Source: Paraoceanicella sp. (GTDB lineage Bacteria > Pseudomonadota > Alphaproteobacteria > Rhodobacterales > Rhodobacteraceae). Taken from it: a DNA stretch of 34,857 nucleotides. Shown piece after piece: positions 22,563 through 34,522 of this stretch (its first letter is position 1; every line of letters starts with the position of its first letter). The stretch is from the NCBI GenBank assembly GCA_031399375.1, contig JANNOT010000278.1, positions 1-34,857 on the forward strand. Reading direction: 5' to 3'. A program made the translations under genes and the position numbers. The notes below the pieces were generated by a model. That model had not been told where the DNA came from. It did no database searches and saw nothing but the letters and a program-made list of their open reading frames with translations.

Positions 22563-23417
22563 TCACGCTGCGGGAGAACCTGACCAGCTCAGGCGATAGA
22601 ACGCGCATGCGGTCCCGCCAAATACGGCGGCCTTGTCTTTGGGTGCCACAAAATCTTGTGCCATTGCCCACCACGCCCCGTACTCGCCCCGCAGGCGAAC
22701 CACCGGCCAGTCCGATCCCCACATGACCCGTGCGGGTCCGAAGGCGGCGAGGACATGGGCGGCATAGGGCGCGATGTCCGATGCGGTGCTGCCGGGTGCC
22801 GCTTCGGTCCAGAGACCCGAGAGCTTGCAGAACGCGGCCGTTTCCCGCGCCATCCGCGACATGCCGTCCGCCCAGGCGGCCATGGTCGCGGATCCGTCAC
22901 GGATCCCCGGCTTCATCGCGTGGTCGATGACCGCGCGCAGACCGGGGCGGGCGGACAGCACGCGCAGGAAATTCGGCAAGTGCTGCGGAAATCCCAGCGC
23001 GTCGAGGGTCAGACCCCGCTCCTCCAGCGCATCGAAGGCCCAGGCAATGTCGGGGCGCAGCATCCAGTCCAGGTCGGCGATGTCCTGGATCATCGGGCGC
23101 ACGCCCTTGAACTTCGGATGTCGCGCGAGCCGGTCGAGCGCGCGGCGCGCGCCCCTGTCCTCGAAGTCGATCCAGCCCACCACGCCCAGGACCGAGGGCG
23201 TCGCGTCGGCGACCCCCAGCATGTACTCGGTCTCGGCCACGCTCGGCGCGGCCTGGACGAGGACGGTCCCGTCCACCCCCGCGGCGGCAAGCGCAGGCGC
23301 AAGATCGGCGGGGTGGTAGGGGCGGCTCAGGACGGGGTCGTCCTTGGGCATCCAGCCGTAATCGCCGCGTGCGGGGTGCCAGTAGTGCTGGTGGGCATCG
23401 ACGAGACGGGGGGGCAT
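22563..23417 (-). CDS. Amidohydrolase_2 family, L-fuconolactonase-like sugar lactonase
   Basis: VDAHQHYW, GTVLVQAA, GVVGWID, KGVRPMIQ, VIDHAMKP, CKLSGL.TEA and FGPARVMWGSDWPV. TGATG coupling to the upstream AKR. Confidence 0.88.
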   Translation of the reverse strand: MPPRLVDAHQHYWHPARGDYGWMPKDDPVLSRPYHPADLAPALAAAGVDGTVLVQAAPSVAETEYMLGVADATPSVLGVVGWIDFEDRGARRALDRLARHPKFKGVRPMIQDIADLDWMLRPDIAWAFDALEERGLTLDALGFPQHLPNFLRVLSARPGLRAVIDHAMKPGIRDGSATMAAWADGMSRMARETAAFCKLSGLWTEAAPGSTASDIAPYAAHVLAAFGPARVMWGSDWPVVRLRGEYGAWWAMAQDFVAPKDKAAVFGGTACAFYRLSWSGSPAA

Positions 23418-24439
23418 CACGGCGTGGGCGCGTCGGCGCGCAGAAGCCCCTGCGCCTTCAACTCGGCCCAGAGCGCGTCGGGGATCGCCACGTCCATCAC
23501 CGCACGGTTCGCCCGAATCTCGGCCACCGACTGGCCCCCCGGCAGCACGTTGACGACGGCGGGGTGCAGGAGGGGGAAGCGTAGCGCCGCCTCGATCAGC
23601 CGGACGCCGTGGCTCTCGCACACCGCCTCGATGGCCTGCACCCGCGCGATGATCTCGGGCGGCGCGGGGTCGTAGTTGTAATAGGCACCCTGCCGCGGGC
23701 CCGTGGCGAGGATGCCGGAATTGTACGGGCCGCCGAGCACGATCCCGATGCCGCGCCGCTCGCAAAGCGGCAGGAAGCTGTCGAGCGCCGTCTGCTCGAG
23801 GAGGGTGTAGCGCCCGGCGAGGAGGAAGAGGTCGAAATCCCCCCGCTCCGCCAGGGTCTGGCACACCTCCCACTCGTTGATCCCGCCGCCGATCGCCTTC
23901 ACCACGCCCTGGTCGCGCAAGCTCAGGAGCGCGTAGTAGCCGCCCCGCATGAACTGATCGACATAATGGTCGGACCGCGCCTTGGTCCCGTGGGTGAAGA
24001 TGCACAGATCATGGGCATAGAGGATGTCCACCCGGTCGATGCCGAGCCGCTCGAACGAGATCTCGAAGGACCGCATCACCCCGTCATAGGAATAGTCGAA
24101 CACCTCGCGCCGGTTGGGCACGTCGAACCACTTGCCGACGCCCGTGCGCTGGTCCGGCGGGGCGACCTGCATCAGCCGACCGACCTTGGTCGAGATCACG
24201 TAGTCGTCCCGCGTCTTGCCGCGGAGCATGCGGCCGAGCCGCCGCTCCGACAGGCCCAGCCCGTAGAGCGGCGCGGTATCGAAGTAGCGCACGCCCCCCT
24301 CCCACGCCGCCTCGAGCGCCGCATGGGCATCGTCGTCCGACAGCCCGCGATAGAGGTTGCCGAGCGGGGCCGTGCCGCAGCCGAGGGGGGTGAAGTCGAT
24401 CCCCCCGTTCTCGATGCGCTGCCAATGCTGCCTGTCCAT
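23417..24439 (-). CDS. Aldo/keto reductase, D-threo-aldose (L-fucose/L-galactose/D-arabinose) 1-dehydrogenase-like
   Basis: G.GTAPLGNLY, YFDTAPLYGLGLSERRLG, ISTKVGR, FDYSYDGVMRS, LLAGRYTLLEQ and GGPYNSGILA. Confidence 0.88.
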   Translation of the reverse strand: MDRQHWQRIENGGIDFTPLGCGTAPLGNLYRGLSDDDAHAALEAAWEGGVRYFDTAPLYGLGLSERRLGRMLRGKTRDDYVISTKVGRLMQVAPPDQRTGVGKWFDVPNRREVFDYSYDGVMRSFEISFERLGIDRVDILYAHDLCIFTHGTKARSDHYVDQFMRGGYYALLSLRDQGVVKAIGGGINEWEVCQTLAERGDFDLFLLAGRYTLLEQTALDSFLPLCERRGIGIVLGGPYNSGILATGPRQGAYYNYDPAPPEIIARVQAIEAVCESHGVRLIEAALRFPLLHPAVVNVLPGGQSVAEIRANRAVMDVAIPDALWAELKAQGLLRADAPTP

Positions 24440-24529
24440 GGAAGCTCCCCCGATCCTGCCCGCGCTTGCGGCGGCCCGGCCCTTGATCCTACAAGGGGAG
24501 GGGCGGCGCAAGGGTCGGGGGACGGGCGG

Positions 24530-25447
24530 GTGAGCGTCACGATACTGGGGATCTTCGTCGCCGACGTGGCGTTTCGTGCCACCCGCCAACCCGCGATGGG
24601 CGAGACGATCCTGGGCGAGGACTTCAGGCTGGGCCCCGGGGGCAAGGGCTCGAACCAGGCCGTCGCCGCCGCCATGGCCGGGGGTCGGGTCACGTTCCTG
24701 TCCACCATCGGCGCGGACGATTTCGGCGCGATCGCCAAGGCGACCTGGGCGCGGGCCGGGGTGACGCCCCGGGTGCGCGAGCTTGCAGATACCGGCACCG
24801 GGGCTGCCTACATTTTCGTCAGCAGCCAGACCGGCGACAACGCGATCATCGTCTATCCCGGCGCCGCGGGCACGATCACCGCCGCCGATGTCGAGGCAGA
24901 GGCGGCGGCCATTCAGGGCGCGCGGGTGTTCATGACCCAGCTCGAACAGCCCGTCGCCGCCGCACTGCGCGGCCTGCAGATCGCGCGGGACGCGGGCGTC
25001 ACGACCATCCTAAACCCAGCGCCCGCGGCGGTACTGCCGCCCGAAATCTACCCGCTCTGCGACTACCTCACCCCCAACGAGAGCGAGGCGGCCGCCCTGA
25101 CCGGCCTGCCCGTCACCTCGCTGCCCGAGGCGCAGGCGGCGGCGGACGCGTTGCTTGCCCTCGGCGTCGGCGTCGCGGTCGTGACGCTGGGGGCCGAGGG
25201 CGTGCTGCTGCGCGGGCGCGGCATCGACACCCATGTGCCGAGCTTTCGCGTGGGCGCCGTCGTCGACACGACCGGCGCGGGCGATGCCTTCAACGGCGGG
25301 TTTGCCACGGCCCTGGCCGAGGGCGCGGACCCCGTCGCCGCCGCGCGGTTCGGTTGCGCCGTCGCGGGCATCTCGGTCACGCGGTCCGGCACCGCGCCAT
25401 CCATGCCCACGCGCGCCGAGGTGGACGCGCTGCTGAAAGGAGCCTGA
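24530..25447 (+). CDS. rbsK: Ribokinase (PfkB family)
   Basis: GTG start; GETI.G, GPGGKGSNQAVA, QLEQP, ILNPAPA, TPNESEA and DTTGAGDAFNGG. Confidence 0.88.
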   Translation: MSVTILGIFVADVAFRATRQPAMGETILGEDFRLGPGGKGSNQAVAAAMAGGRVTFLSTIGADDFGAIAKATWARAGVTPRVRELADTGTGAAYIFVSSQTGDNAIIVYPGAAGTITAADVEAEAAAIQGARVFMTQLEQPVAAALRGLQIARDAGVTTILNPAPAAVLPPEIYPLCDYLTPNESEAAALTGLPVTSLPEAQAAADALLALGVGVAVVTLGAEGVLLRGRGIDTHVPSFRVGAVVDTTGAGDAFNGGFATALAEGADPVAAARFGCAVAGISVTRSGTAPSMPTRAEVDALLKGA

Positions 25448-25448
25448 G

Positions 25449-25898
25449 ATGCTGAAAGGTCTCGATCCCCTGCTGACCGCCGAGGTGCTCTATGTCCTGC
25501 GCGCCATGGGGCATGGCGACGAGCTGGTGATCTCGGACACCAACTTCCCCGCGGCCTCGGTTGCGGCCACAACGGTGCATGGCGATCTTCTGCGCATCGG
25601 AGCGAACGCGCCCCGCGCCGTGCGGGCGGTCCTGTCGGTGTTCCCGCTCGACAGCTTCGTCGACCACCCCGCGTCGCGGATGGAAGTGGTGGGCGAGCCC
25701 GCCCGGATCGAACCGGTGATGGCCGAGGTTCAGGCCGAGATCGACGCCGCCGAGGGGCGGCCCTGGGCGCTGGGGCCTGTGGAGCGCTTTGCCTTCTACG
25801 ACCGGGCGAAGCAGGCCTTCGCCGTGATCCAGACCGACGAGCGGCGGTTCTACGGTTGCTTCATCCTCAAGAAGGGCGTGATCCCCCCCGACGCTTGA
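25449..25898 (+). CDS. RbsD/FucU family sugar mutarotase
   Basis: MLKGLDPLL, MGHGDELVISDTNFP, VERFAFYDRAK and YGCFILKKGVI; FucU-like. Confidence 0.92.
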   Translation: MLKGLDPLLTAEVLYVLRAMGHGDELVISDTNFPAASVAATTVHGDLLRIGANAPRAVRAVLSVFPLDSFVDHPASRMEVVGEPARIEPVMAEVQAEIDAAEGRPWALGPVERFAFYDRAKQAFAVIQTDERRFYGCFILKKGVIPPDA

Positions 25899-25979: not shown

Positions 25980-27074
25980 ATGGCCGAACGGTTCGACGTG
26001 GCGATCGTGGGCGGCGGCATCGCGGGCGCCTCGCTCGCCTATTTCCTCGCCCCCGATCGCACGGTCATGCTGCTGGAGGCCGAGGAGCATCTTGGCACCC
26101 AGTCCACTGGGCGCTCGGCTGCCGAATACACCCAGCGGTTCCATTCCCCGGTCGCGGCGCGCCTGACGCGGGCAAGCGCAGGCTTCTTCGCCAGCCCACC
26201 TGACGGCTTCGCGACCATTCCCCTGCTGCGGCGGCGCGGGAACCTGGTGATCGCGGGGCCGGAGAAGGTGGATCGCTTCGCGGCAGTGCTTTCGGCGGAG
26301 ATGGCCGCCGACACGCCCGTCGAACCCCTGACGGTGCAAGCTGCGCAGGAGAAGGTCCCGTTTCTGAACCCCGACTACGTCCGGGGTGCCTTCTACGATC
26401 CCGACTGCTGGGACGTGGAGGTCGAGACGCTGTTCCAGGGCTTCTGGAAAGGCGCCAAGGCCGCGGGGGCCGTACTGCGCACCCGGGCGGGGCTGACCGG
26501 AGCGCGGCATGAGGGCGGCTGGGTACTGGAGACGGCGGCGGGCGAGGTGCGGACGGATATCGTGGTGAATGCCGCGGGGGGTTGGGCGGACCGGGTGGCG
26601 GAGATCCTCGGCGCAGCCCCCCTCGGCCTCGTCCCCCACCGGCGCACGATGATCAGCGTCGCGGCGCCCGGGTACGACGTCGCCGGGATGCCCGAGGTCA
26701 ACGAGGTGGACGAGGCGTTCTATTTCAAGCCCGACGCGGGCCACCTGATCGTGAGCCCAGCCGACGAGACCCCCGTGGCGCCGCATGATGCCTGGGCCGA
26801 GGAGATCGACATCGCCACCGCCGCCTGGCACCTGGGCGAATGCACCACGCTCGATGTCCGGCGCGTGCTGCATTCCTGGGCGGGGCTGCGCACCTTCGCC
26901 GCCGACCGGGTGCCGGTCGTCGGCTTCTCCGCCCGGGTCCACGGCCTCTTCTGGCTCGCGGGCCAGGGCGGGTCCGGGATCCAGACCTCGCCCGCACTGG
27001 GACGGCTCGCGGCGGACATCCTGCTCGGGCGCGCCGCGGACCCCGACCTCTCCCCCGCCCGACTGGGGGGCTGA
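25980..27074 (+). CDS. FAD-dependent D-amino acid dehydrogenase, D-arginine dehydrogenase (DauA)-like
   Basis: GGGIAG dinucleotide fold, STGRSAA.Y, FF.SPP.GF, VVNAAGGWAD, FYFKPDAG, SPADETP, WAGLRTF and FWLAGQGG.GIQTS, as I recall from Pseudomonas DauA. Confidence 0.8.
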   Translation: MAERFDVAIVGGGIAGASLAYFLAPDRTVMLLEAEEHLGTQSTGRSAAEYTQRFHSPVAARLTRASAGFFASPPDGFATIPLLRRRGNLVIAGPEKVDRFAAVLSAEMAADTPVEPLTVQAAQEKVPFLNPDYVRGAFYDPDCWDVEVETLFQGFWKGAKAAGAVLRTRAGLTGARHEGGWVLETAAGEVRTDIVVNAAGGWADRVAEILGAAPLGLVPHRRTMISVAAPGYDVAGMPEVNEVDEAFYFKPDAGHLIVSPADETPVAPHDAWAEEIDIATAAWHLGECTTLDVRRVLHSWAGLRTFAADRVPVVGFSARVHGLFWLAGQGGSGIQTSPALGRLAADILLGRAADPDLSPARLGG

Positions 27075-27075
27075 G

Positions 27076-28011
27076 ATGCGGGTGCACCGGGGCGACCAGG
27101 CGTTCGACCGCGACGGTCTGCTGGGGACGGAGACGGAGATGCCGTTTTCCGGCACCCGCAGCTACATGCGTCGGCGCCTGACGCGCGATCTGACCGGCGT
27201 GAACTACGCCGTGATGGGCATCCCCTCCGACCTCTCCACCTCCGGTCGCCCGGGGGCACGGCTGGGGCCGGAGGCGGTGCGCCGCGCGTCCGCGCAGCTC
27301 AGCTGGGGCGAGGTCTGGCCCTGGGGCTTTGACCCCTTCGACCGGCTGGCGGTGGTGGATTATGGCGACGTGTTCTACCAGCGCGGCCAGCCCGCCCAGA
27401 TGCTGGCGGCGGTCGAGGCGCAGGCGGCCCATGTGCTGGCGCAGAGCACGCGGCTGATCGGGATCGGGGGCGACCACCTCGTCACCCTCCCCCTCCTGCG
27501 CGCGCAGGCGCGGGCGCACGGGCCGCTCGCCCTCATCCAGTTCGACGCGCACCGCGACACGGCGCCGGGGGATTGGGTCGATCACGGATCCTTCGTCACC
27601 CACGCGATGCGCGAGGGGCTGATCGTGGCGGAGGCGTCGATCCAGATCGGGATCCGCACGGCCTATGCGCTCGACGATCCCATCACGGTGCTCCATCGCC
27701 CCGTCGTCCGAACGCTCGGGGTCGCGGGCGTCGCGGCGCGGATCCGGGCGGTCGTGGGCAACCGGCCCGCCTACCTCACCTTCGACATCGACGCGTTCGA
27801 TCCGGCCTTCGCCCCTGGCACCGGGACGCCCGTGGTGGACGGGTTGCTGCCCCATGAGGGGATCGACGTGGTTCGCGCGCTTGCGGGGCTCGACATCGTG
27901 GGCATGGACGTGGTCGAGGTCGCGCCGCCCTACGATCCGGCCGAGACAACGGCGCTGCTCGCTGCGTCGGTGATCCTCGAACACCTCTGCGCCGTGGCAT
28001 CCGCGCGATGA
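27076..28011 (+). CDS. speB: Ureohydrolase, agmatinase (SpeB)-like; substrate uncertain
   Basis: RPGARLGPEAVR.AS, GGDH, FDAHRD, DHGS, TFDIDAFDPAFAPGTGTP and DVVEVAPPYD. All metal ligands are intact. Confidence 0.8.
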   Translation: MRVHRGDQAFDRDGLLGTETEMPFSGTRSYMRRRLTRDLTGVNYAVMGIPSDLSTSGRPGARLGPEAVRRASAQLSWGEVWPWGFDPFDRLAVVDYGDVFYQRGQPAQMLAAVEAQAAHVLAQSTRLIGIGGDHLVTLPLLRAQARAHGPLALIQFDAHRDTAPGDWVDHGSFVTHAMREGLIVAEASIQIGIRTAYALDDPITVLHRPVVRTLGVAGVAARIRAVVGNRPAYLTFDIDAFDPAFAPGTGTPVVDGLLPHEGIDVVRALAGLDIVGMDVVEVAPPYDPAETTALLAASVILEHLCAVASAR

Positions 28012-29705
28012 GGCCGCGGCTCACCATCGATCTTTCCGTCATCGCCGCCAACACGGCCCGGGTGATGGACATCTGCCGTCCGCAGGGGGTCGAGGTCTGG
28101 GGGGTGACCAAGGCCGCCTGCGGCAACCCCGCCGTGGCGCGTGCCATGCTGCGCGGCGGTGCCACGGGGCTTGCCGACAGCCGGCTTGACAACATCCGGC
28201 GGATGCGACGCGGCGGCATCGATGCCCCGGTGATGATGCTGCGCCTGCCCTCGATGTCCGAGGCGGCCGACGTGGTCCGCCTGACCGAGATCAGCCTGAA
28301 TTCCGAGGCCGCGACCCTGCGCGCGCTCGGCGAGGCGGCGGTCGACCAAGGGGTGATCCACGGCGTGCTCGTGATGCTCGAGCTTGGCGACCGGCGTGAG
28401 GGGGCGAGTGCCGAGGAGCTCCCCCGGCTTTGCGCGATTGCCGGCGGAACCGACGGCCTGCGCCTCGCGGGCATCGGCGCCAACTTCATGTGCGCGAACG
28501 GCGTCCTGCCGAGCCTCGCCAAGATGGAGGCGCTGGTGGAGGCGTCCGAGGCGGTGGAACGGGCGCTGGGGGTCCGCGTCGCGATAATCTCCGGCGGCAA
28601 TTCGGCAAACCTGCCGGAGATGGCGGTGGCGCGCCTGCCCCACCGGGTCAACCACCTGCGGGTCGGGGCGGCGATCCTGCGGGGCGAGAACCCGCTGACG
28701 GGCGGTACCCTGCCGGGGATGCGCGACGACGCGTTCCTGCTCGAGGCCGAACTGGTGGAGCTGAAGGACAAGCCCTCCGCCCCCGACGGTATGCTGGGGC
28801 GCGATGCCTTCGGGGGCGTTCCGGTGATCCTGGACCGGGGCACGCGCCGGCGGGGGATCGTCAATCTTGGGCGGGTGGACATCAGCGCAGCCGGGCTTGC
28901 CCCGCGCACCCCCGGGGCGGAGGTGATCAGCGCGTCCTCGGACCATCTTCTCATCGACCTGACCGATGCGGCCGAGATCCGGGTGGGCGACCGGGTCAGC
29001 TTCGGGCTCGACTACGGCGCGCTCGTACAGGCGATGCTGTCACCCTACGTGGACAAAGTGCTGGCGGGGCGGGGCGCGATCGGTGCGGCCCCGCGGAGGA
29101 TCGAGATCGACGCCGACCCGGTGCTTCTCGCCCGGCCCGAGGTTGCGGCGTTCCGCGCGGCCCTGCCCGCGCTCGGCTTTGACGGCGGGGGCGGGGCGGT
29201 GCTGCGGGTCCTGATCACCGCCGACCGGCCCGACCGCCTGCCGGACCTACCCGGCGAGCTCGGCGTGCTCTGGTGCGACAGCGATCCCGGCCCGGTGGCC
29301 ATGCTGCCGGCCGAAAGCGGCGCGCTCTACGGCCTGCGCACCGCCACCCCCGGCCAGGCCGCGATGATCCGCGAGCGGGGCCTGCTCGCCCTGACCATGG
29401 AGGAGATCGACATGGTCGGCGTGCGCGAAACCATCCGCCGCGCCCTTGGCCGCGTGACGGGCAGCACCGACGGCTTCCACCTCGTCCTGCATGCGAGCCT
29501 GGGGCGCGGCATGGATGCGGACCCGCTGGAGGCGGGGCTGAACTGGCGGGAATGCTCGATGGTCATGGAGCGCATCGCCGCGTCACGCGGGCTCCGGACG
29601 ATCACGCTCGCGGGGCTCGGGGCGGAAAGCTCGGGGGCGGCGCTGGCGGTGGCGTTCGGGCATCTTCTGAGCGCGCTCGGCAAGCGTATCCTGCCCGCCG
29701 GGTGA
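28008..29705 (+). CDS. Alanine/ornithine racemase-family PLP enzyme (about aa 1-351) fused to a degenerate arginase-like C-terminal domain
   Basis: N-terminal part: GVTK (K35), LADSRLDNI, MLELGDRREG, GIGANFMC, ISGGNS, NHLRVGAAILRG, AELVELKDKPS, ASSDHLLID and SPYVDK. C-terminal part: LGVLWCD, LYGLR, TMEEID.VG, DGFHL, GLNWRE and ALGKRIL. Confidence 0.85.
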   Translation: MRPRLTIDLSVIAANTARVMDICRPQGVEVWGVTKAACGNPAVARAMLRGGATGLADSRLDNIRRMRRGGIDAPVMMLRLPSMSEAADVVRLTEISLNSEAATLRALGEAAVDQGVIHGVLVMLELGDRREGASAEELPRLCAIAGGTDGLRLAGIGANFMCANGVLPSLAKMEALVEASEAVERALGVRVAIISGGNSANLPEMAVARLPHRVNHLRVGAAILRGENPLTGGTLPGMRDDAFLLEAELVELKDKPSAPDGMLGRDAFGGVPVILDRGTRRRGIVNLGRVDISAAGLAPRTPGAEVISASSDHLLIDLTDAAEIRVGDRVSFGLDYGALVQAMLSPYVDKVLAGRGAIGAAPRRIEIDADPVLLARPEVAAFRAALPALGFDGGGGAVLRVLITADRPDRLPDLPGELGVLWCDSDPGPVAMLPAESGALYGLRTATPGQAAMIRERGLLALTMEEIDMVGVRETIRRALGRVTGSTDGFHLVLHASLGRGMDADPLEAGLNWRECSMVMERIAASRGLRTITLAGLGAESSGAALAVAFGHLLSALGKRILPAG

Positions 29706-29765: not shown

Positions 29766-31100
29766 TCATCCCAGGCCGTCGAGCGCCGCGCGGAACCGCG
29801 CCGCGACCGTGTCGCGGGCCCTGTGGCGGCCGTCCTGGACCACGTGGCGCCCGGCGGACCACACATCGCGCACGACGCGGTCATCAGCCGCGAAGATCCA
29901 GGCGTCGAGCAGCCCTGGGGGCGGGACGGCGTGGAAGGCGAGCGCCGCGGCGTCGAGCGCCACGAGATCGCCGAGCCGCCCCGGGGCGATGGCGCCCGCG
30001 GGCCGACCGAGCGCCTGCACCCCGCCCGCGAGGATGCGGGTGAAGAGGCTGTGGCCGGTGGAGCCGTCGCCGCCTGCCATCACGGTGCGGGCGATGTCGC
30101 GCTGGCGCTGGGAGTATTCGAGGGTCCGCAATTCCTCGGCCAGGGCGATGCGGACGTTGGAATCCGATCCGATGCCGATGGCGCCCCCCGCGGCCAGAAA
30201 ATCCGGTCCGGGAAAGGGGCCGTCGCCCAGGTTCGCCTCGGTGATCGGGCAGAGCCCCGCGACCGCCCCGGTCCGGGCGAGGCCCGCGGTCTCGGCCGCC
30301 GTCATGTGGGTGGCGTGGATCAGGCACCAGTCCGGCCCGAGGGGAAGGTGGTCGAGCGCCCAGGCGACCGGGCGCGCGCCGAGCCAGGCCTCGACCTCGG
30401 CCACCTCGCGCGGCTGCTCGGCGATATGCATGTGGATGGGCCCCGGGGCATGGGGCAGCACCGCGGCCAGTCCCCCCGGCGTCGTTGCGCGCAGGGAATG
30501 GGGCGCGATGCCGAGCCGGTGGTCGGGGGGCGCCGGATCGGCCGCGAGCCGCTCGACCAGCCGCAGGAATGCCTCGGGCGTGTGCCCGAACGCGCGCTGC
30601 CCCCCGGCCAGCGGCTGGCCGCCGGTGCCGCCATGAGTGTAGAGCACGGGCAGCAGGGTGAGGCCGATCCCCACGGTCGCTGCCGCGGCCCGGATCCGCC
30701 GCGACATCTCGGCCGGATCGGCATAGGGCGTCCCGTCGGGTCGGTGATGGAGGTAGTGGAACTCCGCCACCGCCGCATACCCGGCCTCCAGCATCTCCAG
30801 AAACGTCTGGGCCGCGATGGCCTCGACCGCCTCGGGCGTCAGACGCTCCACGAACCGGTACATCAGGCTGCGCCATGACCAGAAGCTGTCCTGGCCCGCC
30901 CGGACCTCGGTCCGACCGGCCATTGCGCGCTGGAAGCTGTGGGAATGAAGATTGGCAGGGGCCGGCAGCAGGATGCGCACCTGCGCGCCCGCCACACCCG
31001 TCTCGACCCCGGTGATCGTCCCGTCCGCCCCCAGCGTGACCGCGACGTCGCGCACCCATCCACCGGGCAGCAGGGCATGGGTGGCGGTGATGCGGGCCAT
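29766..31100 (-). CDS. hutF: Formimidoylglutamate deiminase
   Basis: NLHSHSFQRAMAG, DSFWSWR..MY, EFHYLHH, APHSLRA, HMHIAEQ, LCPITEANLGDG and GSDSN. Confidence 0.95.
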   Translation of the reverse strand: MARITATHALLPGGWVRDVAVTLGADGTITGVETGVAGAQVRILLPAPANLHSHSFQRAMAGRTEVRAGQDSFWSWRSLMYRFVERLTPEAVEAIAAQTFLEMLEAGYAAVAEFHYLHHRPDGTPYADPAEMSRRIRAAAATVGIGLTLLPVLYTHGGTGGQPLAGGQRAFGHTPEAFLRLVERLAADPAPPDHRLGIAPHSLRATTPGGLAAVLPHAPGPIHMHIAEQPREVAEVEAWLGARPVAWALDHLPLGPDWCLIHATHMTAAETAGLARTGAVAGLCPITEANLGDGPFPGPDFLAAGGAIGIGSDSNVRIALAEELRTLEYSQRQRDIARTVMAGGDGSTGHSLFTRILAGGVQALGRPAGAIAPGRLGDLVALDAAALAFHAVPPPGLLDAWIFAADDRVVRDVWSAGRHVVQDGRHRARDTVAARFRAALDGLG

Positions 31101-31130
31101 CGGCGATCCCTTGCGAGCGTCGGCGGGTCG

Positions 31131-31146
31131 GATATCTATGGACAGG
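31131..31146. promoter_or_regulatory. Putative HutC operator between hutF and hutD
   Basis: ATCTATGGACA (minus strand TGTCCATAGAT), a degenerate TGT-N4-ACA GntR/HutC-type site in the divergent intergenic region. Confidence 0.45.
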
Positions 31147-31178
31147 ACCATTCCCGCTGCCAAGCCCCGGGAGATTTT

Positions 31179-31748
31179 GTGGAGCGGATCGGCCCCGGCG
31201 ATTACCGCCCCCAGCCCTGGCGCAATGGGCGCGGGCTTACCGAGGAGATTGCGCGTTCGCGCCCATCCCTGCCCTCGGGGGCGCCGCTGTGGCGGCTGAG
31301 CCGGGCGGTCGTGGCGGGGGGCGGGCCATTCTCGGTCTTCCCCGAATATCGCCGCTGGCTGACGCTGCTGACCGGGACGGGGCTGCGCCTGACCGGCCCG
31401 GGGCTCGACATCGTGCTGGGGCCAGGCGAGACGGCGGCGTTCGACGGGGCGCTGCCGGTGACGGGGACGCTGACGGGTGGTCCGGTGGAGGTTCTGAACC
31501 TCATGGCCGTGCCAGAGGTCGGGGCGACGGCCGCGGTGGTGCGGCCCGGGATGCGGCTGGCCTGGCGGGCAAGCGGGCGCGGGATGCTCCACGGTGCCGC
31601 GGGTCGGCTCCGGCTCGGCCGGGCCAACCTGCGCGCGGGCGGGACGCTGCTGCTGGATCCCGGCGACGCGGCGACCGTGCTGCCGCTCGGGGGCAGCGGC
31701 TGGGGGGTCTGGGCGGCGGTGGAGGGCGCGGATCATGTCTGGACATGA
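31179..31748 (+). CDS. hutD: HutD/Ves family protein
   Basis: GTG start after GGAGA; PWRNGRGLTEEIA, WRLSRA, GPFSVFP.YRR.LTLL.G.GL.L and LNLM. Confidence 0.88.
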   Translation: MERIGPGDYRPQPWRNGRGLTEEIARSRPSLPSGAPLWRLSRAVVAGGGPFSVFPEYRRWLTLLTGTGLRLTGPGLDIVLGPGETAAFDGALPVTGTLTGGPVEVLNLMAVPEVGATAAVVRPGMRLAWRASGRGMLHGAAGRLRLGRANLRAGGTLLLDPGDAATVLPLGGSGWGVWAAVEGADHVWT

Positions 31749-31750
31749 TC
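31731..31750. promoter_or_regulatory. Putative HutC operator upstream of hutI
   Basis: Near-perfect 20-bp palindrome GATCATGTC-TG-GACATGATC with a TGTCTGGACA core. Confidence 0.6.
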
Positions 31751-31802
31751 CCCCGGCCCCGGGCAGGATGACCGCTCACCCCGCCCCGGGACCCGTCCAC
31801 CC

Positions 31803-33005
31803 ATGCCCCAGGATGCCCTGCTCGTCGATCTCGACGCGGCCACGCTCCGGCCGGGGACTGCGGAGTATGGCCTGATCCCGCGGGCAGCGATCGCGGTCGA
31901 GGGCGGGCGCATCGGCTGGGTGGGGTCCGGGGACGCCGTGCCGGACCAGTGGCAGCACCTGCCGCAGGCGCGCCAGGGCGGGCGGCTGGTCACGCCCGGG
32001 CTGATCGACTGCCATACCCATCTCGTCCATGGCGGGCACCGCGCGCGGGAGTTCGAACAGCGGCTCCGGGGTGCGACCTATGCCGAGATCGCGCGGGCCG
32101 GCGGCGGGATCGTCTCGACGGTCGCTGCGACACGCGACGCCTCCGAGGCAGCGCTCCTGGCCGGTGCCCTGACCCGGGCCGATGCGCTGATCGCAGAGGG
32201 GGTGACGACCATCGAGATCAAGTCGGGCTACGGGCTCGATATCGACACCGAGCTTGCGATGCTGCGGGTCGCGCGCGCGGTCGCGGCAGCACGGCCGATC
32301 CGGGTGCGCACCACCTTCCTCGGCGCCCACGCGGTCCCGGACGGGATGGACGCCGACACCTATATCGACGCGGTCTGCATCCCGGCGCTGGAGGCGGCGG
32401 CGGCGGCGGGGCTGGCCGATGCGGTGGACGGGTTCTGTGAGGGGATCGCGTTCTCGCCCGCCCAGATCGCCCGGGTCTTCCGGCGCGCCCGCGCGCTGGG
32501 GCTGCCGGTCAAGCTCCATGCCGAGCAGCTCTCGACCCTTGGCGGCGCGCGGCTTGCGGCGTCCTTCGGCGCGCTCTCGGCGGATCATCTGGAATATCTC
32601 GATGCCGACGGAATCGCGGCCCTGGCGGCGTCCGGGACGGTCGCCGTCCTGCTGCCGGGCGCGTTCTACACGTTGCGCGAGACGCAGGCCCCGCCGGTCG
32701 CCGCGCTGCGCGCCGCGGGTGTGGCGATGGCGCTCGCGACGGACTGCAACCCCGGCTCCTCGCCGATGACCTCGCTGCTTCTCGCCCTCAACATGGGCTG
32801 CACCCTCTTTCGCCTGACCCCGGACGAGGCGCTGGCGGGGGTCACGCGGACCGCGGCCCGCGCGCTCGGGCTCGAGGATTGCGGGGTCATCGCGCCCGGC
32901 AAGCGCGCCGATCTCTGCGTCTGGGACGTGGAGCATCCGGCCGAGCTTGCGTACCGCATCGGGTTCAACCCGCTCCATCGGCGGATCTTCGGGGGCAGCG
33001 CATGA
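31803..33005 (+). CDS. hutI: Imidazolonepropionase
   Basis: [46 protein letters not shown] and [10 protein letters not shown]. Confidence 0.96.
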
Positions 33006-34522
33006 TCCTGATGCCAGGCGAGGCGACGCTCGCCGACCTCGCCCGCGTGTGGTGGGGGGGCGAGGCGGTGGCGCTCGACCCCGCCTGTCGTCCAGGGGTC
33101 GAACGCGCGGCGGCAGCCGTCGCCGCGGCGGTCGCGGGCGGGGCAGCGGTCTACGGCGTCAACACCGGCTTTGGCAAGCTGGCGAGCGTCAGGATCGCGC
33201 CCGCGGACACGGCGACGCTCCAGCGCAACCTGATCCGGTCCCATTGCGCCGGGGTGGGGGCACCGATGCCGGTCCGGGTCGTGCGGCTGATGATGGCGCT
33301 GAAACTGCTGTCGCTGGGGCGCGGCGCGTCGGGCGTGCGCTGGGCGCTGATCGCGCTGATCGAAGGGATGCTTGCCCGCGGCGTCACTCCCGTGGTCCCT
33401 GCCCAGGGGTCGGTCGGTGCCTCCGGCGACCTCGCGCCCCTGGCGCATATGACGGCGGTGATGATCGGCGAAGGGACGGCCGAGATCGGCGGGGTCGCGA
33501 TGCCCGGGGCGGCGGCATTGGCGGCGGCGGGGCTGTCGCCCGTGCCGCTGGGGGCCAAGGAGGGCCTCGCCTTCATCAAGGGGACGCAGTTTTCGACGTC
33601 CTATGCGCTCGCGGGCCTCTTCGAGGGCTGGCGGGCGGCGGAGGGGGCGCTCGTGACCTCGGCCCTGTCCACGGATGCCATCATGGGCTCCACCGCGCCG
33701 CTTCACCCCGAGATCCACGCGCTGCGCGGTCACCGGGGGCAGATCGAGGCGGCAGCGGCGCTGCGCGCGCTGCTGGAGGGCTCGGCCATCCGCGACAGCC
33801 ACCGCGAGGGGGACGCGCGGGTGCAGGATCCCTACTGCATCCGCTGTCAGCCCCAGGTGACGGGTGCCGCCATGGACCTGATGCGCCAGGCGGGGAGCAC
33901 ACTGGCGATCGAGGCCAATGCGGCCACCGACAACCCGCTCGTGCTCGGGGATGCGATCGTGTCGGGCGGCAATTTCCACGCCGAACCCGTGGCCTTCGCC
34001 GCCGACATGCTCGCCCTCGCCATCGCCGAGGTGGGGGCGATCGCGCAGCGCCGGGTGGCGCTGATGGTGGATCCCGCGCTCAGCTTCGACCTGCCGCCGT
34101 TCCTCACGCCGGACCCCGGCCTCAACTCCGGCTTCATGATCGCCGAGGTGACGGCGGCGGCGCTGATGAGCGAGAACAAGCAGCGCGCCGCCCCCTGTTC
34201 GACCGACAGCACGCCCACGTCGGCCAATCAGGAGGACCATGTGAGCATGGCCGCCCATGGCGCGCGTCGCCTGGTGGAGATGAACGCGAACCTCGCGCGC
34301 ATCCTCGGCATCGAGCTGCTCTGCGCGGCGCAAGGTGTGGAGTTCCGCGCGCCCCTGACCACCTCCGCCCCCCTCGCCCGGGTGCTGACGCGGGTCAGGG
34401 CCGACGTGCCGCCGCTCGGCCCCGACCGCTACATGGCGGACGATCTTGAGGCAGGCGCCGCCCTGATCCGCAGCGGCGCGGTGGTGCAGGCGGCGGGGAT
34501 TCCGCTGGTCCCGCCCCTGTGA
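33002..34522 (+). CDS. hutH: Histidine ammonia-lyase
   Basis: [25 protein letters not shown] (MIO-forming ASG), [19 protein letters not shown] and [13 protein letters not shown] overlap with hutI. Confidence 0.96.

Follow-up and report, generated by a model that had tools for sequence, protein, structure and literature searches.

The window analysed here (the whole 34,857-nucleotide stretch of a Paraoceanicella sp. contig) carries, at 28008..29705 on the + strand, a gene for a 565-residue protein that fuses an OrnR-type PLP racemase to a pseudo-arginase domain, and sequence comparison supports the view that this C-terminal tail is a pseudo-enzyme under purifying selection. We give an even chance to the explanation as a whole, in which an active racemase, a metal-less trimerising tail and L-arginine held at the tail interface would combine to tune arginine racemisation. 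In line with the first-pass annotation, which knew of no characterised example, our literature search found no published description of a racemase-arginase fusion, most subscription journals lying outside its scope. The roles of metal-free arginase proteins have been called elusive (PMC11271267; for Oda, PMC12826042).

The racemase domain and the eroded arginase tail

A single open frame spans 28008-29705, its start overlapping the stop of an upstream ureohydrolase gene within the ATGA at 28008-28011. GC3 is 0.90-0.93 throughout the gene, tail included, and a scan for promoters and terminators returned nothing beyond chance. Because 234 full-length relatives have the same architecture, the fusion is not an assembly artefact. 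Database labels for these proteins read 'alanine racemase', 'ornithine racemase' or 'arginase', and mislead for most members.

Residues 1-351 (28008..29060, +) form the complete fold-III PLP racemase module that had been proposed from motifs: they match Pfam Ala_racemase_N (E 1.8e-28) and superimpose on the alanine racemase 5yyc (structure alignment, Z 30.6, rmsd 3.4, 331 aligned residues). The AlphaFold model of the full protein (pLDDT 91.1, pTM 0.88) returned racemase-fold matches only, among the Foldseek matches listed. By alignment, K35 of GVTK (28110..28112, +) is the PLP Schiff-base lysine, equivalent to OrnR Lys36, and C162 of GANFMC (28491..28493, +) the catalytic cysteine, equivalent to OrnR Cys164 (PMC13397332), while SPYVDK occupies aa 345-350. 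OrnR (Salmonella STM2358), in which PLP-binding Arg129/Arg220 and Asn161 stand alongside the Lys/Cys acid-base pair, and C. sticklandii Orr share with the fusion the fold, this pair and R130, N159, R218 and Y347; the catalytic Tyr of arginine or broad-spectrum Tyr/Lys racemases (ArgR, LysR, BsrV) is replaced here by the OrnR Cys (PMC13397332), and identity to 4dza and 4beu is 14-16%. All OrnR-type catalytic residues are thus present, K35, R130, N159, C162 and R218 being conserved in 231-234 of the 234 fusions, and the domain is likely to be active as a Lys/Cys PLP racemase. By contrast, the known OrnR/Orr enzymes are single-domain proteins (~355 aa), and unlike them the fusion has D-arginine catabolic neighbours and scores below the cut-off of the NCBIfam Orr family (NF040742, E 6e-97, 324.8 bits against a curated cut-off of 480). 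The OrnR paper makes no mention of an arginase or a fusion (PMC13397332).

The tail (aa 360-565, 29085..29702, +) has the RocF-type arginase fold that had been suspected. Its best PDB sequence matches are the RocF-type arginases 2ef4, 2eiv and 1cev (E 4e-8), residues 363-562 of the AlphaFold model align with Thermus arginase 2eiv in a wide structure alignment (Z 21.3, rmsd 2.6, 198 aligned), and every motif pairing named earlier holds; folded alone from the single sequence, the tail reached a pLDDT of 39.8. With RocF arginases (B. caldovelox 1cev/3cev; T. thermophilus 2eiv) it shares fold and trimer interface, as well as both acids of the external L-arginine site. Unlike them, it is fused to a racemase, is some 100 residues shorter (~200 aa versus 299) and has lost five of six Mn ligands, which bears out the earlier reading of a short domain with its ligands largely replaced: only D424 (B. 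caldovelox D122) is left, H99, H124, D126, D226 and D228 having become R407, D426, G428 or a gap, H495 and S497. The substrate loop carrying the catalytic His, H139, is deleted, and the substrate-binding E271 is G536.

Despite this loss, selection still acts on the tail. Identity to eight clade members is 59-67% for tail aa 436-562 versus 58-61% for the racemase, and dN lies well below dS in the C-terminal half of the tail (e.g. 0.17 versus 0.58), a comparison that is only a rough guide because dS is near saturation and GC3 is ~0.9. It is very improbable that the tail is a functionless, decaying remnant or has gained a new metal-free catalytic activity. Decay would fit the progressive shortening from ~300 to 200 aa, the fast divergence of the N-terminal half (31-40% identity) and the dispensability for growth of the non-catalytic Oda ARG domain (PMC12826042). 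It does not, however, fit the low dN in the C-terminal half or an interface invariant in 234 proteins from several phyla, and new catalysis is at odds with an old active site that holds no conserved polar residue.

A 2022 study by Mothersole reportedly concerned Oda, an ornithine decarboxylase/arginase. This Fusobacterium protein (PDB 8d27; PMC12826042) likewise joins a PLP ornithine enzyme to a conserved arginase domain at its C terminus, which has lost activity in some lineages. The N-terminal domain of Oda is a decarboxylase, whereas ours is a racemase, and Oda lost two Asp ligands, compared with five ligands and whole loops here. Oda is a closer precedent than the MfmAB pair invoked by the first-pass annotation, which had missed both Oda and the D-arginine context. 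MetCaCb/MfmAB (PMC11271267) also includes a metal-free pseudo-enzyme of the arginase family with a role in assembly; MetCb, however, is a separate paralogue that binds its active twin, whereas here an unrelated enzyme carries the dead domain, which is predicted to associate with itself.

Retained interface residues and a candidate arginine site

We took the positions that never vary among 30 dereplicated stand-alone arginases (B. caldovelox numbering) and scored their retention in the family of at least 234 full-length fusions. Any given Mn ligand survives in 55-154 of 234 proteins; H139 persists in 17 and E271 in 31. By contrast, D199 is kept in 233 of 234, and R249, E250 and E256 in all 234 (here D468, R514, E515 and E521); even among fusions with at most one Mn ligand, 99 of 100 keep both D199 and E256. 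These residues fall in two segments of the predicted trimer interface, T463-D468 (TMEEID, 29394..29411, +), in which D468 equals B. caldovelox D199 and human D204, and the R514-E521 helix (29547..29570, +), in which R514/E515 equal human R255/E256, an intersubunit pair (PMC12902588, PMC7925462), and E521 equals B. caldovelox E256 and human E262. A third predicted interface segment is the C-terminal GKRIL (29679..29693, +). Where the Bacillus helix has H252, this protein has S517; the His is retained by 123 of the 234 fusions.

The tail modelled as a homotrimer scored 0.93 against 0.00 for the best control, with pLDDT of at least 91 and at least 95% of contacts agreeing between runs, residues 463-468 contacting 514-521 and 560-562. 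Solved pairs attained the score mark in 20 of 30 cases and single chains in 1 of 23, three-copy models lying outside the predictor's calibration, and the pass may stem from likeness to solved arginase trimers. Taking model and conservation together, the oligomerisation module suggested by the first-pass annotation gains support, and we consider it highly probable that the tail trimerises via the old arginase interface. With tail trimers tying racemase dimers together, a hexamer or a larger assembly would result.

In human arginase, R308 pairs with two acids of the neighbouring subunit, E262 and D204. The B. caldovelox enzyme, which has no R308 equivalent, binds free L-arginine at that site (PMC7925462); we found no literature passages naming Asp199 or Glu256 of the latter. 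By this analogy we lean slightly towards free L-arginine being held at the D468/E521 interface site, and not in the old active site, which makes an arginine-sensor role of the tail plausible. L-arginine between tail subunits might then tune the assembly or activity of the racemase.

Possible, though on balance improbable, is a purely structural role, in which the tail trimer stabilises or orders racemase dimers and binds no ligand, protein side chains satisfying the acidic pair. The strongly conserved polar tail residues all lie within the modelled interface, and trimer structure alone could account for the conservation of D468, R514, E515 and E521 because all four make direct subunit contacts in the model. 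Moreover, new salt bridges are possible from basic residues 559/560 and from the fusion-typical E465 (in 96 of 102 fusions versus 3 of 30 stand-alone arginases), the pocket may be occupied or remodelled by R560 or E465 in the model, and in mammalian arginases these acids have a structural use (PMC7925462). Against this role, the R308 position is I, L or V and never Arg in 234 of 234 fusions, a lack shared with the Bacillus enzyme and its bound free arginine. In addition, E521 and D468 are near-invariant among fusions less than 50% identical, and the loci lie among arginine-pathway genes.

Gene neighbourhood and the racemase substrate

Directly upstream lie a DauA-like FAD D-arginine dehydrogenase gene (25980..27074, +; 3nyc DauA E 4.3e-77, next family E 9e-21) and, one base on, the overlapping ureohydrolase gene (27076..28011, +), which encodes an agmatinase-type enzyme with all six metal ligands (NF002564, 374.8 bits, cut-off 302; 4dz4 E 3e-84). 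The same two accompany the fusion at L012-L015, whereas L048 and L092-L094 carry a 2-ketoarginine decarboxylase (NF005712, 778-784 bits, cut-off 500), a guanidinobutyrase (3nio E 4e-159), Rid, an aldehyde dehydrogenase and a Lys/Arg/Orn-type ABC transporter. In the DNA examined, several contigs being short, 6 of 23 fusion loci had no arginine or ornithine catabolic neighbour. P. aeruginosa DauA and DauB convert D-arginine to L-arginine, whereas the operon racemase here would drive L-arginine to D-arginine for catabolism. The downstream enzyme families of the Pseudomonas D-arginine route (DauA, 2-ketoarginine decarboxylase, guanidinobutyrase) are the same as those beside the fusions (DauA, Rid: PMC5619798).

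On the basis of the DauA-like dehydrogenase, ureohydrolases and 2-ketoarginine decarboxylase nearby, arginine racemisation is likely, and we think it reasonably probable that arginine is the main substrate; the racemase would likely turn L-arginine into D-arginine for the adjacent dehydrogenase and ureohydrolase. In aerobic bacteria, the gene would thereby provide the racemisation of arginine that delivers substrate to D-arginine dehydrogenase. Against this, characterised OrnR favours ornithine, with far lower activity towards arginine (PMC13397332). The Paraoceanicella genome also gave no AruI over cut-off, and it carries an unassigned fold-III decarboxylase (C154) from which the agmatinase-type neighbour could be supplied along a different path.

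Ornithine is a possible but less probable substrate, compatible with either role of the tail: D-ornithine would be oxidised by the DauA-like enzyme to pyrroline-2-carboxylate and pass on to proline and glutamate. The active site is of the OrnR type, DauA-type enzymes accept D-ornithine and D-lysine, in L012 the genes flanking the fusion include PutA and a pyrroline-2-carboxylate reductase (over cut-off), and the Paraoceanicella genome itself has homologues of both. However, the 2-ketoarginine decarboxylase and guanidinobutyrase of L048 and L092-L094 require a guanidino substrate, and no arginase for converting L-arginine to ornithine was found in this genome (92.9% complete), where RocF, SpeA, AstA, ArcA, OKR_DC and AruI all gave nothing over cut-off. 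In addition, the Tyr after the catalytic Cys is Ala, Val or Thr in 96 of 98 matched members of this clade, a possible pocket change. OraE and Ord had no match in this genome, in which the fusion lies outside an ornithine-fermentation cluster and not beside DokD.

The first-pass annotation also suggested that the tail docks the adjacent ureohydrolase; the two would form a mixed oligomer, as MetCb does with MetCa, channelling D-arginine. The gene overlap, the direct adjacency of a ureohydrolase at 8 of 23 loci and the MetCaCb precedent (PMC11271267) speak for this. We nevertheless regard it as very unlikely, and comparison of the loci does not support it: ureohydrolases are directly adjacent at only those 8, they are of two types (agmatinase and guanidinobutyrase, mutually 35-39% identical), and they lack D199, R249 and E256. 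Furthermore, the five ornithine-cluster fusions have the same tail interface with no ureohydrolase alongside, and the close paralogy of MetCa and MetCb (34% identical) has no parallel between tail and neighbour.

The fusion family as a graded series

The survey of homologues proposed by the first-pass annotation turned up a family that runs from a fully intact arginase in P0139, which passes the arginase cut-off, to the eroded tail seen here, with Mn ligands lost variably and the full ligand set changing state at least five times on the tail tree. A single branch of that tree (94/98) contains all 37 fused tails, alongside stand-alone P0375 and P0376, and a single origin of the fusion is neither demonstrated nor rejected (p-AU 0.07 on the racemase tree). 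Unfused neighbouring orr-rocF pairs occur in L026 and L041, and deep fusion members lie in ornithine-fermentation clusters (ord-ortAB-oraSE). We infer that an adjoining orr-rocF pair fused into a two-enzyme arginase/ornithine racemase, and that the hydrolase site later eroded on several occasions without loss of the interface. In this aerobic clade the racemase would lose its substrate to any arginase that was still active, which fits the deepest erosion being found there.

The family thus preserves successive steps in nature, starting with separate genes, passing by way of an intact fusion and ending with a remnant of 200 residues. Since it singles out exactly four conserved residues, the role of such metal-free domains is testable with few point mutants. 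Tentatively, and with less than even confidence, the protein may be an arginine-gated arginine racemase, in which a dead arginase, kept only for its arginine pocket at the interface, activates or builds a dimer-plus-trimer racemase cage under abundant L-arginine, at the entry of alphaproteobacterial L-to-D-arginine catabolism. If so, an allosteric site would have outlived its active site and been transplanted onto another enzyme, and living organisms would still show every step between the gene pair and the eroded sensor.

No full-length fusion occurs in 40 close relatives, and 400 genomes of the class yielded one full-length match and one racemase match within a 649-codon frame. The tail is dispensable in relatives, because tail-less racemases adjoin this clade (L018 and L044, the latter near a Lys/Arg/Orn transporter) and most Orr enzymes have no tail.

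The fusion and its racemase half

The first-pass annotation had described the gene at 28008..29705 (+) as a racemase continuing into an arginase-like tail, and profile, PDB and structural matches showed this description to be correct. The frame is free of stops and translates into 565 residues. Residues 1-351 match the NCBIfam ornithine racemase Orr (E 6e-97; 324.8 bits, below the cut-off of 480), while for residues 352-565 the match to Pfam Arginase is weak (E 7e-4), with further matches to TIGR01229 RocF (E 1.7e-6) and to solved Bacillus and Thermus arginases (E 4e-8). An AlphaFold model of the full protein (43-row alignment; mean pLDDT 91.1, pTM 0.88) bore out the arginase fold expected for the tail, with model residues 363-562 superimposing on 2eiv (Z 21.3, rmsd 2.6 over 198 residues).

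We gathered the family from two homologue searches and one representative search (best 120, 150 and 120 matches listed) and found at least 254 proteins in which the racemase is followed by a long extension. The tail profile matched 247 of them; the other 7 carry other domains, duplications or a frameshift. Removal of 13 short or motif-less rows left 234 fusions of at least 540 aa (541 to about 750 aa), through a filter that forces G558 and I561 but not D468, R514, E515, E521 or the Mn-ligand positions. Named hosts include Alphaproteobacteria, Desulfobacterota, a spirochaete and Deltaproteobacteria, and within the window's class the gene is rare and patchy. Orr-type racemases also occur with other partners (2,4-diaminopentanoate dehydrogenase, D-Ala-D-Ala dipeptidase and a D-Ala-D-Ala ligase-like ATP-grasp protein, in the homologues P0133, P0153 and P0193) or as a tandem duplication (P0101/P0121).

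OrnR catalysis relies on Lys36 and Cys164, with Arg129, Asn161 and Arg220 (PMC13397332). Because the equivalents K35, C162, R130, N159 and R218 are all present in the window protein and kept across the 234 fusions (K35 in 231, with 3 gaps; the other four in 234 each), the racemase domain looks active, judging from these residues. The characterised OrnR prefers ornithine, arginine being a weak substrate (PMC13397332); the words 'arginase' and 'fusion' are absent from the text of that paper. In Fusobacterium Oda, a PLP ornithine decarboxylase is joined to an arginase domain which stays conserved despite being non-functional (PMC12826042). Dead arginases attached to PLP ornithine enzymes are therefore already known, although Oda is a decarboxylase and not a racemase. 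Searches of the main text of papers, mostly from open-access journals, found no published description of a racemase fused to an arginase domain. The racemase-pseudo-arginase fusion is real and conserved.

Residues kept in the tail and the trimer model

We counted retention (B. caldovelox numbering, n=234 fusions) at positions that are all invariant in 30 dereplicated stand-alone arginases (from 120). The Mn ligands were kept unevenly (H99 in 55, D122 in 154, H124 in 80, D126 in 55, D226 in 112, D228 in 81), as were H139 (17) and E271 (31); all six ligands occur in 21/234 fusions and at most one in 100/234. Versions with intact ligands, envisaged in the first-pass annotation, do exist: P0139, P0267 and P0268 keep all six plus H139 and E271, and the arginase part of P0139 is complete (E 1.5e-79 to 1cev, over the TIGR01229 cut-off). 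In a 50-row tail tree, 37/37 fused tails form a single branch (94/98) that also encloses two stand-alone proteins, and the full ligand set switches state at least five times. Two loci, L026 and L041, have a separate orr and then a directly adjoining intact rocF. The stand-alone intact or near-intact arginases P0375, P0376 and P0377, which nest inside the fused-tail clade, are either split-off tails or pre-fusion relatives.

D199 is kept in 233/234 fusions and R249, E250 and E256 in 234/234 each, all four being present in 48/48 fusion rows less than 50% identical. Their window-protein equivalents, D468, R514, E515 and E521, align pairwise with D204, R255, E256 and E262 of human arginase 1. Garcia in 2015 is said to have identified Asp199 and Glu256 as allosteric arginine ligands. 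In human arginase the partners of R308 are E262 and, in the neighbouring subunit, D204; B. caldovelox arginase, which has no R308, binds free L-arginine in that interface (3CEV; PMC7925462); R255-E256 is an intersubunit pair (PMC12902588). The R308 position is never Arg in the fusions (217 I, 10 L, 7 V; n=234). Identity to eight clade members is 59-67% in the C-terminal half of the tail (436-562), 58-61% in the racemase and 31-40% in the N-terminal half of the tail; in the closest pairs the C-terminal half has dN of about 0.12-0.21 versus dS of 0.56-1.1.

Three copies of residues 360-565, modelled as a complex from a 150-row alignment, scored 0.93 versus 0.00 for the best of 3 controls (contact agreement between runs at least 95%; pLDDT at least 91), and passed a mark reached by 20/30 solved pairs and 1/23 single chains in a calibration on two copies rather than three. 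The tightest contacts join T463, M464, E465 and D468 of one copy to R514, E515, S517, M518, E521, R560, I561 and L562 of the next. Within aa 436-562, conservation averages 0.62 over the 32 interface positions and 0.48 over the remaining 95. Since arginase trimers are solved, the pass may reflect mere likeness to them; the modelled contacts would also fit a purely structural role, and the model is silent on ligand binding. We regard a trimerising pseudo-arginase as fairly secure, and arginine sensing by the tail and arginine racemisation by the enzyme as plausible; the latter two are directly testable.

The suggestion that the tail docks on the adjacent ureohydrolase (27076..28011, +) was not upheld, and we consider it very improbable. 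At 199/249/250/256 the window's ureohydrolase has R/H/E/R and other fusion-adjacent ones R/G/D/R, W/I/Q/R or W/P/Q/R, where the tail has D/R/E/E. These neighbours are of two types, 35-39% identical to each other, and directly adjoin the fusion in only 8/23 loci; the precedent for an inactive ureohydrolase partner, metformin hydrolase MetCa/MetCb, involves paralogues of the same clade (PMC11271267).

Gene neighbourhoods and flanking genes

In the window a DauA-like gene (25980..27074, +; 3nyc match, E 4e-77), the agmatinase-type ureohydrolase, which has all six ligands, and the fusion abut or overlap. We compared 25 fusion loci, or 23 after removal of two duplicates. The window's DauA-like and agmatinase-type pair recurs in 4/23 (L012-L015), with pyrroline-2-carboxylate reductase and PutA also in L012, and L101 has a DauA-like gene near the fusion. 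Five loci (L048, L092, L093, L094, L098) hold a guanidinobutyrase-type gene, accompanied by 2-ketoarginine decarboxylase in 4, Rid in 3, and aldehyde dehydrogenase plus D-amino-acid dehydrogenase in 2. Ornithine-fermentation clusters hold another 5/23 (L016, L017, L027, L076, L105); a D-amino-acid dehydrogenase accompanies the fusion in L019 and a Lys/Arg/Orn-type transporter in L103, and in 6/23, several on short DNA, no relevant neighbour genes were seen. None of RocF, AruI, SpeA, AstA, ArcA or OKR decarboxylase was over cut-off in the window's own genome (92.9% complete).

On the basis of these neighbourhoods and gene absences, the deep fusion members, in ornithine-fermentation clusters, are predicted ornithine racemases, and the window's clade probably came to serve arginine catabolism by way of D-arginine. 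Agmatinase-type enzymes include ones with D-arginase activity. As no AruI passed its cut-off in the genome, D-arginine or 2-ketoarginine may be the substrate of the window's ureohydrolase, a reaction that would lead through pyrroline-2-carboxylate to proline; DauA converts D-arginine to 2-ketoarginine, Rid assisting (PMC5619798).

A MATE-family transporter gene lies upstream of the fusion in five clade loci (L013, L014, L015, L095, L101). In a record titled Roseovarius, an alphaproteobacterium, the fusion accompanies a complete ord-ortAB-oraSE-orf ornithine-fermentation cluster (L016:7988-13848). The DauA-like, ureohydrolase and fusion genes at L014:7804-8849 and L015:3478-9396 contain frameshifts, which are likely assembly errors.

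Upstream of the operon, 22563..25898 holds a sugar-catabolism-type cluster not seen beside other fusion loci: amidohydrolase and aldo-keto reductase genes (-), and PfkB kinase and FucU-like mutarotase genes (+), this plus-strand pair ending 81 bases short of the DauA-like gene. On the other side, histidine utilisation genes (29766..34522) follow immediately downstream of the fusion: hutF (-), then hutD, hutI and hutH (+). The histidine ammonia-lyase encoded by hutH (33002..34522, +) has AFIKGTQ, against ALLNGTQ in P. putida HAL (1gkm), with a Lys replacing a normally conserved Asn that has a role near the MIO cofactor; this is either a natural change or a sequencing error.
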